A stretch of DNA of 64,000 bases from Eledone cirrhosa (GCA_964016885.1 OZ024743.1:97898001-97962000), one strand, 5' to 3'; shown: positions 9,201 to 50,625, numbered from the stretch's first letter. Notes: generated from the letters alone by a model not told the origin. Program-made: numbers and translations.

Positions 9201-10198
9201 TTCAGTGGAACTCCGCTTACATTTAGAGTGCACTAAGCAGACTTCCTTGAAAGGACGAGTGTCTCGGTCTTCGCAGCACTGATGTTTATTCCAGCCGTGC
9301 AGCACTCGGGAACAAACTTGTCAAGTGCATGTCAAAGATCACCAGACGAGTTAAGTAATATCATTTCATCGCATATTCCAGCTGTCTGATCCGACATTCA
9401 CCAGTTTTGATACCACTTCCAACCCGGCTGATCATGTTAATCCTGTCCATGAAGATCTACTTTCCTCGATCACATTAGTTTGAAGTTTAATATATATATA
9501 TATATATATATATATATATATATATATATATATATGATAATAATGGAGCTGCGGCGTTGCAGATGGGTTACATATAAAAAAGTGAGTCCTTCATCAGTGA
9601 CCCTCCAACCGTCCTAGGCATTTCATCGCTTTAAGGGCCATATACCTCAGGTTGTTGCGAACAACGGCTAAAAAAAGTCGTTGGGACACGTAAATAAAGA
9701 GAACGTTAGGGTGAACAAACAAAATGGTTTAAGCAACAGAAAGTGAGAAGAAAGAGACAAGTCCCAGATTTCTATGAATATAAACTCGATAAAATCGTGA
9801 ACTAGAGAATAAAGACCATCAGACCTGGTTGAAATGTGAGCAAGGAAGGAATTTCGCACAGGTCTAACGGGAGGAAGAAGAAGGGGTCTGGTCTGCGAAT
9901 TCGGTAAACATAAGTTCTGTGAAGACGCAGACGAGAGAGAGAGAGAAAAAAAATTTCATACCGGCTTGGCCAAGAGTGCGCGAGAAAAGAAATCGGACAG
10001 GTCAAGCGGGAAGAAAGAGGAGAGGAGGAGAGGTAGTGACAGGGTATGAGTGAGTGAAAGTTGAGGAAGAGGCTAACAGAGAGACAGACTGCTAGAAAGG
10101 GTATATATATATATATATATATATATATATATATATATATATATATATATATATATATATATATATATATATATATATATAACAGTTTTAATATAGAA

Positions 10199-10251
10199 GA
10201 GATTCTACAGGACTAGAACTGTTTCATTCATTAGAAATCATCAGGAATCTC
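10199..10251 (-). ncRNA. Type I hammerhead ribozyme
   Basis: gagattc-CTGATGA-tttc(taat)gaat-GAAAC-ag(ttctagtc)ct-GTA-gaatctc. Perfect 7-bp stem I; lies in a ~90-bp insert between (TA)n tracts. Confidence 0.85.
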
Positions 10252-10480
10252 CGATTCAACCCGGAATAACGTATATATATATATATATATATATATATAT
10301 ATATAAATACATTATCAGAGAAAGCTTTTTTGTGATACTCCGGCCAAATTCCAACTCACTCAACAAACATTAGGAAATAAGTGAGTATATTCCTAATTAA
10401 ACGTTCGGGATGCTAACTAAATGTATTGTGTGGAAAATTGGCTGTATTATTTCTTATGAGACATATCGAATATATCTCTT

Positions 10481-10607
10481 CCCAGACGGACGTCTCGTTT
10501 CATTATAAGATTCCTACAATTTGGGTGAAATGATACCAATTTATGTAGGAGCTGGTATAAAATCAACAGATATATATTCAAGTGGGCTCTTATAATTCAT
10601 CAGTGGG
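10481..10607 (-). ncRNA. Type I hammerhead ribozyme with long stem II insertion
   Basis: ccca-CTGATGA-attataaga...(~77 nt)...tcttataat-GAAAC-gagacgtcc-GTC-tggg. Confidence 0.8.
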
Positions 10608-10788
10608 TGCCCAATAATACTAATATTGATAATCTAACCAATGTAAGTATTTAGCGATAATCACCATCAGTGCCTGACGTATCTGTTAGGTTGCTACTCC
10701 AGCAGTTCTAAATAAATACTCAAACTGATTCAAAAATGAGGAAGTAAATTACTGTCAAAAAAACAATACATGCGCAGGATATATATAT

Positions 10789-11483
10789 ATATATCATAAA
10801 TCATGTCCTTAGAATTATTAGATAAAATATATACCATTTCCTCTCACAATTAGCATAATTAACCATATATAAAATCAATTAGACCAAGCTATAAGTATAA
10901 AGGCTCTTATGAAGAAATTTCCGACAAATAACCGAAAGTGGCCTCTTCGCGGTGGCCCCAATAGAGTATCTATCCAACATTTCAACAGCATGTAGAAACT
11001 GACGAAATATACCATCAACCATACACAATTAGGTGCAAATTCAAACTTAGAAGAAATGTATACATACCGTAATTATATCTCTACCATGGTTTCATCCGTA
11101 TTTTTAGACATCCAATTAATAGGATATATCCAGAGTATCGGATTCGTCAGGAGACAAACTCAAAATTAGACTTTTAGTTTTCCAAAGTGATGGCGCCAAA
11201 AATAGATTAAAAAATGGCTAAGAATCGTGACGTGGCAGTGGCCAAGTTAGAAAGAATTTGATTAGTTGCTTACGGCGGGTAGGCTTGTTGCTAGAAAGCG
11301 CAGCCAAATATCGCCCAATTGTATCTCAACCTAACGGCAGATTATTAAATATAAAGGTTTACATATACATAAAGTCATAGGTATATATGTTGCAACCGGT
11401 CACGCTGTGGCTCTATGAAGAATTAATAAATTAAATAATCAGAGCAATATATCATAAATCATGTCCTTAGAATTATTAGATAA
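10789..11483 (-). mobile_element. Hammerhead-bearing element, 658-bp unit with ~35-bp terminal direct repeat
   Basis: ATATATCATAAATCATGTCCTTAGAATTATTAGATAA occurs at 10789-10825 and 11447-11483. (TA)n on both sides; internal hammerhead. Confidence 0.7.
11077..11155 (-). ncRNA. Type I hammerhead ribozyme with extended stem II
   Basis: gtctc-CTGACGA-atccg...(40 nt)...cggat-GAAAC-catg-GTA-gagat. Palindromic stem III (ACCATGGT). Confidence 0.82.
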
Positions 11484-11793
11484 TATATATATATATATAT
11501 ATATATATATATATATACATAGAGAGAGAGAGATTCTACGTTGTTGAGACAGGATTTTACATCTTTCTCTCTTGCACTCTCTCTCTCGCTCTCTCCCTAT
11601 CTCTCTCTCTCTATATATATATATATATATATAAATTGGAATAAATGCTCTGAAATAGCGATATATATGTGAGTATAGACATAGAATATTCGAAAATATT
11701 CTGTATGTTTATAATAAACATTTTGAAGACCTAATCGCTATAGAATAGAATACGTCACGTATTACAATTAGATTCTCGATAAAAGCAAGGGAA

Positions 11794-11836
11794 GTAATCT
11801 ACGCGTTTCATTCTTGTTAGAATTCATCAGGACTAC
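11794..11836 (-). ncRNA. Type I hammerhead ribozyme (also at 12104, 12414, 12724, 13034; truncated copy at 13344)
   Basis: Minus strand: gtagtc-CTGATGA-attct(aaca)agaat-GAAAC-gc-GTA-gattac. Stem I is 6 bp, stem II 5 bp, stem III palindromic (ACGCGT). Stem I is extended by a perfect 16-bp helix (11772-11787 / 11845-11860). Confidence 0.92.
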
Positions 11837-47867: not shown

Positions 47868-48197
47868 TCTTTAATATATTTTATTCAATATATACATGCC
47901 TTACTATGGTAGACTTACTTCATCGACCGGTTTAACACCACAACCTACAACTTATGTGCCTATTGCCATGTCCACAACTCTGTTGCAAGCATTCTGACCA
48001 GAACTCTGGTTTATGATGCCTATTTCTCGCTACTATCAGTCTTGATGGACATCAAAAGGGCCACGAGCCCTCTCAATCTCTCCCTGATTAAACAGTAGAA
48101 ATAATACACCCTTTCTTAACTTTCACCCCACACAGTCTCCTTACTCCTCTTTCTAGCTACCTCTCTCTTGTCTTCATCCTCGGACTTCCTTTCTCTC

Positions 48198-49014
48198 AAT
48201 ATAGCTCTCTATATAGCTCTATATAGCTCTCTATATAGTTCTCTATAACTCTCTATATAGCTCTCTATATAGCTCTCTATAGCTCTATATATAGCTCTAT
48301 ATAGCTATCTATATAGCTCTCTATATAGCTCTATATATAGCTCTCTATAGCTCTCTATATAGCTCTCTATAGCTCTCTATATCTCTCTATATAGCTCTAT
48401 ATAGCTCTATATATAGCTCTCTATAGCTCTATATATAGCTCTATATAGCTCTCAATATAGCTCTCTATAGCTCTCTATATAGCTCTATATATCTCTCTAT
48501 ACAGCTCTCTATAGCTCTATATATAGCTCTATATAGCTCTATATGTAGCTCTATATAGCTCTCTATATAGCTCTCTATGGCTCTCTATATAGCTCTCTAT
48601 ATAGCTCTATATAGCTCTCTATATATCTCTATATAGCTCTATATATAGTTTTATATATAGCTCTATATATAGCTCTCTATAGCTCTATATATAACTCTCT
48701 ATAGCTCTATATATAGCTCTCTATAGCTCTCTCTAGGTCTCTATATAGCTCTCTATATAGCTCTATATAGCTCTCTATATAGCTTTATATATAGCTCTCT
48801 ATAGCTCTATATAGCTCTCTACACAGCTCTCTATAGCTCTCTATATAGCTCTATATATAGCTCTCTATAGCTCTCTATATAGCTCTATATATAGCTCTCT
48901 ATAGTTCTCTATATAGCTCTCCATATAGCTCTCTATATAGCTCTCTATATAGCTCTCTATATAGCTCTCTATATAGCTCTCTATAGCTCTCTATAGCTCT
49001 CTATATAGCTCTCT
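48198..49014. repeat. 10-12-bp minisatellite (ATATAGCTCT[CT])n
   Basis: Directly visible degenerate tandem repeat. Confidence 0.95.
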
Positions 49015-49276
49015 ACTTCTCCTCTCATACAAACACACACAACTGAAGACATCGTATACTACCAATCAACCTTCGTTGTCACTACCTGCCACCATTTACT
49101 CTTTCTTACTGGCTTTAGCTCTCTCTCTCTCTTTCTATTTATTTCATACACACTCACTTCTATCGATATATATATATATATATATATATATATATATATA
49201 TATATATATATATATATATATATATATATATACGATATATTAACAAATGGAAACTATATTTATAAAACCATATTTA

Positions 49277-49337
49277 TTTCATTATACATATTTCAAGGAC
49301 ACCAAGTTAAATTATGGTGTGCTTTCATCAGATAAAA
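49277..49337 (-). ncRNA. Type I hammerhead ribozyme (inverted copy of 49479-49539)
   Basis: Reverse complement of the 49479 motif, in the left arm of a palindrome. Confidence 0.75.
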
Positions 49338-49478
49338 TATAATATCGATCAGTTTCATAAATAAATATTGACATACCCTTAAAGAATGCGACCATATCTA
49401 TCCGGGAGCTTCCAACAGAAATGGTCGCATTCTTTAAGGGTATGTCAATATTTATTTATAAAACTGATCTATATTATA

Positions 49479-49539
49479 TTTTATCTGATGAAAGCACACC
49501 ATAATTTAACTTGGTGTCCTTGAAATATGTATAATGAAA
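49479..49539 (+). ncRNA. Type I hammerhead ribozyme
   Basis: ttttat-CTGATGA-aagcacacca...tggtgtcctt-GAAA-tatgt-ATA-atgaaa. Confidence 0.75.
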
Positions 49540-49763
49540 TAAATATGGTTTTATAAATATAGTTTCCATTTGTTAATATATCGTATTTTTACTCAAATAA
49601 TTTGTTGAGTGCTTTATATCAGTTATAAAAATATTTGCTTGTTGTATCCCAACAATTTAAATATAACTTCTACATATATATATATATATATATATATATA
49701 TATATATATATATATATATATATATATATTCGTCTATCCATCTATATATCTATGTATCTAACT

Positions 49764-50625
49764 CACAGTCCTCTGTCAAGCGGGCACAGCAATCAGTGGA
49801 GACTCCACTTCGACGAGCTCACCAGTCTGTTGGGTAGGACTTTCCGCCCGGGACCTATGGACAACTTCCAGAGGTCCCTGGCCTGGCAGTGCTACCGAGG
49901 AGCTCTACCAGTTCAAGATAAGATCTACAAGCACGGACGCCCCGGCAGGGATCCTTCCAAGAGGACGTGTCCAAAATGCGAGCAGGACATTGAAACCGTC
50001 TTGCACGCAATTGTACACTGCCCGGGCGTAACCGACCTGTGGAGCTACACAGAACAACTGCTGTCGCGTATGGGACAAATCCAGTTGACTGCCGAGTTCA
50101 TAGTAAGGATCAAACTCCCAGCCTCTTTCAAAAACGAAAGAGTGGCGGTTTTCCTCTTTAGAGTGGCTATGGTAAAAGAGGTTATATGGTGGACGAGATT
50201 AAGAGGACTGAGGACAAATGCCTTTCTCTCCGGACAACTCATTCCCTTCTTTAGATACCACTTTAGAAGGAGAATCAGAGTGGAGAGAGAGAGAGGTACT
50301 TCACCCCAGTAAATTTACTGAAAGGTGGGTGAATGTAGCAAAAATAGCCCGAGTGATTGGGTCTTCTCTGTATATAAACCTGTAGGTTGAAGAAGGGAGC
50401 AAAAGGAAGAAAGGGGCACTTGCACAACACGCTCATGAAGTTGGGGGTTGTTCTATCTACAGGGTAATAAACAACCCATTTGTGGCGCCTACCCCCTACT
50501 GCGGATTTCGATTGTTAAATTTGTTTGTTTTAATAATATTTTTAGACGACTGTATGTAAAATCCCCGGCATGTGTCTTTGTATTGTCCCCTTTTCTTGTG
50601 CGCCCTTGTGGCAAATAAAGAAATA
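49764..50625 (+). mobile_element. 5'-truncated Tx1 fragment with 30-bp target-site duplication
   Basis: GPMDNFQRSLAWQCYRGALP, CPKC..ETVLHAIVHC; ends GGCAAATAAAGAAA. CTATCCATCTATATATCTATGTATCTAACT occurs at 49734-49763 and 50697-50726. Confidence 0.9.

Follow-up and report, generated by a model that had tools for sequence, protein, structure and literature searches.

Why does one stretch of an octopod genome hold so many different hammerhead ribozyme motifs, and why does nearly every one lie beside a (TA)n tract? The stretch in question comprises 64,000 nucleotides of Eledone cirrhosa (GCA_964016885.1, OZ024743.1:97898001-97962000; hereafter the window) on a 379-Mb contig of a 3.0-Gb assembly. 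A preliminary description of this sequence had proposed a diverse set of TA-targeting hammerhead elements linked to Penelope-like elements (PLEs), and our analysis supports this part of its account. We consider it about 80% probable that the sites are retrozymes and 3' remnants of PLEs, with (TA)n at their ends and the same insertion structure as the PLEs of this genome, whose enzymes likely insert them. The set is mixed, with tandem non-coding retrozymes that lack long terminal repeats (non-LTR retrozymes), 5'-truncated ends and the 3' end of one Hydra-type PLE.

We first asked whether the motifs exceed what such sequence would yield by composition. As type I hammerheads we counted three-helix motifs with helix I open and with CUGANGA, GAAA and UH arranged around the helices. 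A strict descriptor matched 11 motifs in the window, against a mean of 0.02 (maximum 2) in 100 local dinucleotide shuffles, and none on the reversed or the complemented window strands. An earlier version, over-strict on the short helix III, had given only four matches and was superseded. With a relaxed descriptor we found 13 motifs, starting at 10198, 10481, 11076, 11794, 12104, 12414, 12724, 13034, 13410, 23007, 47164, 49275 and 49477, against 0.02 in 50 shuffles; counts in dinucleotide-shuffled sequence are thus not similar to those observed.

The motifs reported previously were present as described at all 15 coordinates, and most of those called complete were recovered by the descriptor. 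Three were missed. At 13709, GAUA replaces GAAA, and the minimal form is intact in two other copies (L002, L137); at 15250, helix II opens with a U.U pair and helix I is weakened in a motif that is family-wide; at 46541, a C.A mismatch lies inside helix III. The window copies at 13709, 22616, 33421 and 40877 fall outside the type I definition, and those at 15250 and 46541 fit it weakly. The half-motifs at 22616, 33421 and 40877 exist, as 5'-truncated copies of longer elements. The CUGAUGA partner of the half at 33421 lies upstream in longer copies of its family. The family of 22616 and 40877 shows a full three-helix fold in one long copy (L144); its core is non-canonical in all four long instances (two CUGAGAA, one UUGAAAA and one UUGAAAG), so its activity is doubtful. 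The sites are diverse, comprising 13 insertions of about 11 families, but not all unrelated as had been claimed: the five motifs from 11794 and the one at 13410 form one insertion, as do those at 49277 and 49479, while 22616 and 40877 share a family and 46541 is related to 49277/49479.

Relatives within families A, B and C show compensatory changes in the helices, and helix III reaches 7 bp in family J. Folding z-scores were modest (−4.6 for family D as a circle, −2.2 for B, −1.6 for C and −3.1 for X). An Rfam scan gave a single hammerhead row among the 150 listed of 280, HH9 at 22991-23062, whose 35 bits lie below the gathering score of 52. A descriptor for a U3-A8 core variant matched five times, within the range of its shuffles (0-7) and never in the window, which rules this variant out as an enriched class. 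The elements of the window, including a family (X) that the preliminary description did not list, are:

9536..10101, minus strand: family X, young, retrozyme-like tandem unit of ~625 bp, flanked by TA on either side; it carries CUGAUGA and lacks a complete hammerhead.
10182..10271, minus strand: family A, 5'-truncated end preceded by an inverted piece of its own tail; hammerhead 10198-10252, U.U opening helix II.
10306..10778, minus strand: family B, 5'-truncated retrozyme-like unit; hammerhead 10481-10607 with a 95-nt helix II region.
10795..11482, minus strand: family C, one 659-bp unit and a short repeat of its end; hammerhead 11076-11156.
11633..13377, minus strand: family D, left arm, 5.6 identical 310-bp units with one type I hammerhead each; long 3' end adjoining the TA tract 11612-11633.
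11794, 12104, 12414, 12724 and 13034, minus strand: hammerheads of the family D left arm.
13378..13573, plus strand: family D, right arm in inverted orientation, covering 0.63 of a unit and including the hammerhead 13410-13452; its 3' end, the short one, adjoins the TA tract 13576-13593.
13622..13830, minus strand: family E, minimal hammerhead at ~13706-13745, with GAUA for GAAA.
15231..15290, plus strand: family F, 60-bp 3' remnant of a Hydra-type PLE, hammerhead at 15250.
22616..22674, minus strand: family G, 5'-truncated half (GAAA, helix III, UC) with a TA tract on each side.
22715..23523, minus strand: family H, young 466-bp tandem retrozyme, 1.3 units, hammerhead 23007-23051; inverted arm from ~23314, TA at both ends.
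33408..33480, minus strand: family K, 5'-truncated GAAA half, TA tracts on either side.
40876..40992, no single strand: family G, second site, inverted pair of truncated halves flanked by TA tracts.
46413..46744, plus strand: family I1, with a long tail that runs up to TA; the hammerhead at 46541 is mismatched in helix III.
47051..47513, minus strand: family J, tandem unit of ~336 bp, 1.4 copies, hammerhead 47164-47243.
49233..49673, no single strand: family I2, one inverted insertion with TA at both ends; short arm 49275-49339 (minus), long arm 49477-49541 (plus).

Judged by their predicted anatomy, families C, D, H and J are non-LTR retrozymes: their units of 659, 310, 466 and ~336 bp, respectively, are repeated head to tail, within the 150-1000 bp expected of such elements, and each carries a type I hammerhead. 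Family B forms partial tandems, and none were found for A, E, G, I and K; these five families may be either retrozymes or PLE ends. Families B, C, D, H, J and I2 are non-coding (longest ATG frame 30-50 aa), and their GC content of 0.26-0.38 lies under the ceiling of 45-50% expected of retrozymes. First-look searches, whose numbers are not copy numbers, returned 1575 candidates for X, 3000 for B, 3996 for C, 126 loci for D, 1157 for F, 1748 for G, 720 for H, 1400 for J and 94 for K. Forty candidates were scored for each of B, X and H; identity was 98-100% in X, where the tandem spacing is 623-640, and ~100% in H. Other copies of C have tandem and inverted arms. Four older relatives of family D (L121:1-400, L248:400-1050, L178:9540-9750 and L215:2370-2800) have its 3' module in common at 71-80% identity and carry different hammerhead sequences, one with a U3-A8 core. 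In these relatives, the ribozyme part may have been exchanged, or may be changing faster than the tail.

Adjacency to TA, the second half of the question, held throughout. The window contains 98 (TA)5+ runs, and at all 15 sites one lies 0-292 nt away on the 3' side, where the background for a run within 350 nt on one side is 23%. Across family copies, TA is reached in 35 of 38 for A (whose 3' ends cluster ~45 and ~113 nt past the anchor), 26 of 27 for C and 83 of 86 for G (at ~46 or ~126 nt), and it follows the anchor by 196-212 nt in all 20 copies of B. To extend this beyond one locus, we took a blind sample of 400 kb, made up of 40 10-kb pieces chosen by round coordinate across 16 contigs and containing 617 (TA)5+ runs. 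It held 13 motifs, two of them a single inverted pair, against a mean of 0.35 in 20 shuffles. On the 3' side, TA lay within 200 nt of 11 of the 13, compared with a background of 11.7% (P = 3e-9); on the 5' side, it did so for 3 of 12. An abundant repeat resembling short interspersed nuclear elements (SINE-like) served as a control: at either end, 7 of its 47 copies had a TA tract no more than 200 nt away. The enrichment is therefore genome-wide, 3'-sided and not seen for the SINE-like repeat, in agreement with the preliminary proposal. Scaled to the genome, the sample gives about 90,000-97,000 motifs (95% range 46,000-166,000). With ~7 detected independent insertions per 64 kb where ~2 would be expected, the window is richer than the genome average, but the same in kind. 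The predicted families are numerous: 261 loci (1.29 Mb, biased and partly overlapping) gave 137 distinct motifs in 26 clusters. Although the descriptor required only the closing pair of helix III, not palindromy, this helix was a perfect palindrome in 7 of the 13 blind hits, and in 11 when G.U pairs were counted.

How the elements were inserted could be read best from family D, of which we mapped 20 arrays (19 fetched and the one in the window) from 21 loci among the 150 first-listed matches. TA adjoins 39 of the 40 outer array ends. In eighteen arrays, two divergent arms, neither longer than 12.4 units, meet mostly at 0-3 nt of microhomology. The two outer ends of an insertion differ from one another: a long end (phase 307-3) is paired with a short end (phase 265-283) in 17 of the 18 inverted arrays (P = 7e-5 against independent ends). 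The same rule was found at all five inverted family H loci with both ends visible. In family X, inverted arms begin ~33 nt inside the long end, leaving a 33-nt tail, and two fixed 3' ends lie ~68 nt apart in A, ~80 in G and ~92 in I. PLEs of this genome leave the same traces. The Hydra-type PLE has two fixed 3' ends ~65 nt apart, and in a young autonomous PLE all 10 of the 10 inverted pairs combine a short end with a long one. That autonomous PLEs leave the same insertion structure, together with the identity of family F (below), upholds the proposed link to PLEs.

The arrays might instead stem from monomers that inserted and then grew locally by unequal crossover, as proposed for vertebrate retrozymes in the discussion of a preprint (bioRxiv 10.64898/2026.07.22.740005). 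One observation agrees with this: at L063, a tandem locus of family C, the units differ at 32 of 685 positions, nine of them family-wide polymorphisms, which a single template does not explain. Local growth is nevertheless very unlikely, as both inverted arms are multimeric at the 20 family D loci, the outer ends being fixed and the inner breakpoints random, and the units of an array have no substitution in common (14 substitutions in 64 kb, none recurring between units). L069:1258-2268, the sole inverted D locus without a long end, combines arms of two sequence variants, whose three differences correspond to the majority letters of run X1; searching with the variant arm gave no match and was uninformative. 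From L063 and L069 it seems that a locus can draw on more than one template. Arm-versus-arm differences within single insertions were mostly private or alignment-end effects and do not separate one template from two.

Because no long TA tract occurs at tandem junctions, the tract is not part of the unit. In family D, the cut site is predicted at phase 144, and the arms begin ~130-165 nt downstream of it, near 275 or 309; since they nevertheless span many units, the template must cross the cut site. It may have been a circle, an uncleaved multimer or a series of template jumps, three options that these ends do not separate.

Chance motifs or assembly fold-back artefacts in microsatellite-rich DNA could produce a superficially similar picture in a genome where 12% of positions have a TA tract within 200 nt on a given side. 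We regard this as having a negligible probability given the shuffle controls in the window and the blind sample, the arms that differ in length and phase, and the distinct flanks. Moreover, four independent public sequencing runs contain both the family D unit and its head-to-tail joint. Runs X4, X5 and X6, which carry three other organism codes, each contain a single contig of 340 nt in which the 310-nt unit closes on itself (depth 18-34, 2-3 differences); a collapsed DNA tandem fits these contigs as well as a circle does, and they were not used.

Which enzymes could have made these insertions? Open reading frames (ORFs) of two types of PLE were found in the genome, Hydra-type and young Neptune-like. 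Longer copies of family F continue upstream into an ORF with a reverse transcriptase (RT) and a GIY-YIG-type domain, so the earlier picture of short non-coding inserts does not hold for this family, which is the 3' end of a PLE ORF. The hammerhead core lies ~240 nt after the matched part of the ORF in 15 of 20 ORF-selected loci, and TA lies within 400 nt in 19 of 20. A CxCX5C linker precedes the C-terminal GIY-YIG-type domain in 20 of 21 loci, and CxxC and CxH patterns occur at the C-terminus in 21 and 17 of the 21 loci, respectively. Of the RT motifs DKT and RWK, both too short for an all-frame pattern scan to place, DKT is visible in an RT fragment of L208. These ORF motifs suggest that family F is the end of a Hydra-clade-like PLE. 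It looks older, considering that its best 150 matches are 83-92% identical and that no open frame exceeds 585 aa. No hammerhead was seen within 900 nt in the long 3' regions that follow more remotely related Hydra-like ORF ends (L122:1-1596, L162, L163, L130, L081 and L180).

The young family, on the other hand, has many near-identical copies, open frames of up to 1,218 codons and a Neptune-like linker. Intact ORFs of ~1,210 aa with a long asparagine-rich insert lie at L118:3346-6996 and L116:3961-7614, both on the minus strand. Dozens of copies score identically over the C-terminal 245 aa, which indicates very recent amplification. In the 1,210-aa ORF, an RT, a CX2-5CxxC linker and, at the C-terminus, a GIY-YIG domain with internal Cys/His could be read directly, and its homologs carry PF00078, PF01541 and PF26215. 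Octopus vulgaris is the source of the best named homolog (67% identity) of a retroelement protein encoded here, in line with an octopod host. Copies of the young PLE form partial tandems with an inverted 5' copy and a one-sided tail of 44-64 nt, and of a hammerhead they show only the core, in which helix I pairs weakly; the full minimal motif is present in a sister family. By ORF motifs and structure, the young family is probably a Neptune-type PLE.

A predicted hairpin, ACUC...GAGURC, begins the tails of families A, G and I and of the Hydra-type PLE; it was absent from B, C and D in the stretch examined. As it was noticed in selected loci, we tested it on the blind 400 kb. Half of the matches (15 of 30) lay 32-78 nt 5' of a TA run, against a background of 9.9% (P = 3e-8), and 5 of 30 had TA on the opposite side. 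The motif as such was not over-represented (30 matches against 26-48 in shuffles); only its position was. The hairpin is a candidate recognition element for Hydra-type enzymes.

Mobilisation by long interspersed nuclear elements (LINEs) of the RTE, CR1 or R4 type was also considered, in which case the TA contact would reflect generic microsatellite tails. LINE-like RT fragments do occur in the window, LINEs are reported as the largest recently active class in O. vulgaris (PMC13282606, main text), and the account of metazoan retrozymes in PMC7229834 leaves this possibility open. Still, the structure of long and short divergent arms is that of the PLEs of this genome, and the abundant SINE-like repeat has TA contact at background level only. 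We judge LINEs to be a shade less probable than even local growth of the arrays.

If PLE enzymes insert these elements, the following course is proposed. Tandem transcripts would self-cleave as dimers, as the palindromic helix III suggests, and the products would be ligated into circles. The PLE GIY-YIG nuclease would cut an existing (TA)n tract on both strands. Each TA 3' end could then prime RT at its own fixed UA-rich position, the two positions being 26-110 nt apart depending on the family. A circular or multimeric template would give each complementary DNA up to 12 units, and the two would be joined by 0-3 nt of microhomology. Each insertion would leave TA on both sides; later elements could nest in the same tract, and clusters such as 9490-13600 would accumulate. 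In its fullest form, this picture is of an octopod guild of circular ribozyme RNAs that PLE enzymes copy as rolling-circle multimers from the two ends of a staggered cut in (TA)n, with the 3' tail sorting each family to its PLE partner. Some 10^5 motifs would nest in, duplicate and perhaps lengthen TA, and the 310-bp family and the intact PLE would be the first matched pair of retrozyme and enzyme. We propose it tentatively, at slightly less than even odds.

Several points weigh against mobilisation of these ribozyme elements by PLEs. Cleavage, transcript and circle are predicted here from sequence, a look through sequencing runs listed none of RNA, and in the Xenopus preprint cited above, only one of nine tested dimers cleaved. 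Since family X shows the same insertion pattern with half a core, the ribozyme is not required for mobility. The family D arrays that we examined are the best-scoring 20 of 126 candidate loci, a sample biased to long, young arrays. No sequence homology was found between the 310-bp unit and a PLE terminus, so any particular PLE partner of family D is putative. A direct Pfam scan of the 1,210-aa ORF returned zero families, so its assignment rests on motifs and on the domains of its homologs. Finally, a second, rarer control repeat had TA near its two ends in 2 of 7 and 5 of 7 copies, respectively.

Is the TA tract a target or a product? Elements may make or much lengthen (TA)n, with the PLE RT (related to telomerase) or repair slippage extending a short seed, and would then be the source of the TA tracts of the genome. 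Even randomly truncated 5' ends have TA flanks, the 3' ends of elements coincide with TA-like letters of the RNA, a LINE-like ORF is broken off directly by a TA tract at 46366, and the blind sample holds 617 (TA)5+ runs. However, the left and right TA flanks of 18 family D insertions share interruptions (cosine similarity 0.43 against 0.24 when permuted, P = 0.0013), as would the halves of one imperfect tract. Together with the lack of TA at tandem junctions, this favours the splitting of a pre-existing tract over the spreading of (TA)n that the preliminary description had suggested, although duplication of a short imperfect seed could mimic it, and we consider production of TA by the elements unlikely. 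Target-site duplications, which in retrozymes should exceed 4 bp where they occur, are masked by TA at these insertions. A first search for empty sites was swamped by tandem self-matches, and a second, with matches for 11 of 280 blocks, gave no true empty site.

Retrozymes, PLE hammerheads and TA-targeting PLE clades are all known. Non-LTR retrozymes of metazoans occur as many families per genome, 16 in a coral, and in up to 120,000 copies in axolotl; their circular RNA has been shown in coral, mussel and axolotl, and PLEs were proposed as their mobiliser (Cervera and de la Pena 2020, PMC7229834). As in the families described here, their tandem units are non-coding and low in GC, measure a few hundred bases and contain one type I hammerhead each. 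In contrast to the description in that text, the present arrays terminate in (TA)n, and their divergent arms show a fixed long end and a fixed short one; also, circular RNA was shown for those retrozymes, whereas ours are known as DNA. The text of that paper contains no occurrence of 'microsatellite', 'inverted', 'octopus' or 'cephalopod'. Vertebrate retrozymes co-occur with PLEs and are taken to use their enzymes (Li, Clavereau and Pollet 2026, the preprint cited above). There, as far as its text goes, the evidence is co-occurrence and homology of pseudo-LTRs (pLTRs), no mollusc was sampled and local amplification of arrays is suggested, while here the evidence is insertion structure and points to arrays inserted whole.

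According to Craig et al. 2021 (PMC8557442), PLEs target (TA)n, and their insertions comprise partial tandems, an inverted 5' copy and a 30-40-bp tail on one side. With the Hydra clade of that account, family F shares the C-terminal GIY-YIG, the CxCX5C linker, CxxC and CxH, a 3' hammerhead and insertion into (TA)n; the clade was described mostly from cnidarians and a few other aquatic invertebrates, and here it is abundant and older-looking. The young PLE resembles the Neptune type of the same account in its RT, C-x4-C-x2-C linker and C-terminal GIY-YIG-type domain, and in its partial tandems, inverted 5' copies, one-sided tail and TA targets. It differs in the length of the tail and in having no more than a hammerhead core. 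The minimal hammerheads described for PLE ends (Cervera and de la Pena 2014, PMC4209133) likewise have a short palindromic helix III and an extra base before helix II, and include a U3-A8 core variant, numerous dispersed single motifs from truncated PLEs and opposite-strand pairs. Several families here open helix II with U.U or A-U, unlike those motifs, which have a conserved G-C; TA targeting is not mentioned in the parts of that text consulted. The 2026 repeat annotation of O. vulgaris lists 31 recently active PLE families, and ribozymes are not mentioned in its main text (PMC13282606). In the main texts of the open-licence literature, we found no report of retrozymes in cephalopods, of retrozymes with TA targets and inverted arms, or of an insertion fingerprint shared by retrozymes and PLEs; supplements may list cephalopod families.

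These results bear on two open questions: the identity of the enzyme that moves animal retrozymes, and the origin of their arrays, by insertion as a whole or by growth in place. According to the text of the 2026 preprint, the mechanism of mobilisation remains to be worked out. The present results name a PLE as the likely enzyme in a long-suspected partnership, through a direct structural link to a co-resident intact PLE. Near-identical young retrozyme arrays and a young PLE with an intact ORF and the same fingerprint provide a concrete RNA, protein and target for reconstitution, and the rule of one long and one short end constrains how PLEs themselves integrate. For cephalopod genomics, they add a class of roughly 50,000-160,000 ribozyme motifs to those covered by the main text of PMC13282606.

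The window also contains other repeats. A broken LINE-like element with endonuclease, RT and C-terminal zinc-finger-like frames lies on the minus strand (57524-58969 and 56569-59950), and related fragments occur at 30308-31372 and 49629-50312. A LINE-like endonuclease/RT fragment at 45053-46365 on the plus strand has a frame that enters the TA tract at 46366, where the I1/J cluster opens. Two minisatellites rich in TATA words span 36134-38056 (28-bp unit, ~67 copies) and 48193-49015 (12/22/34-bp unit).

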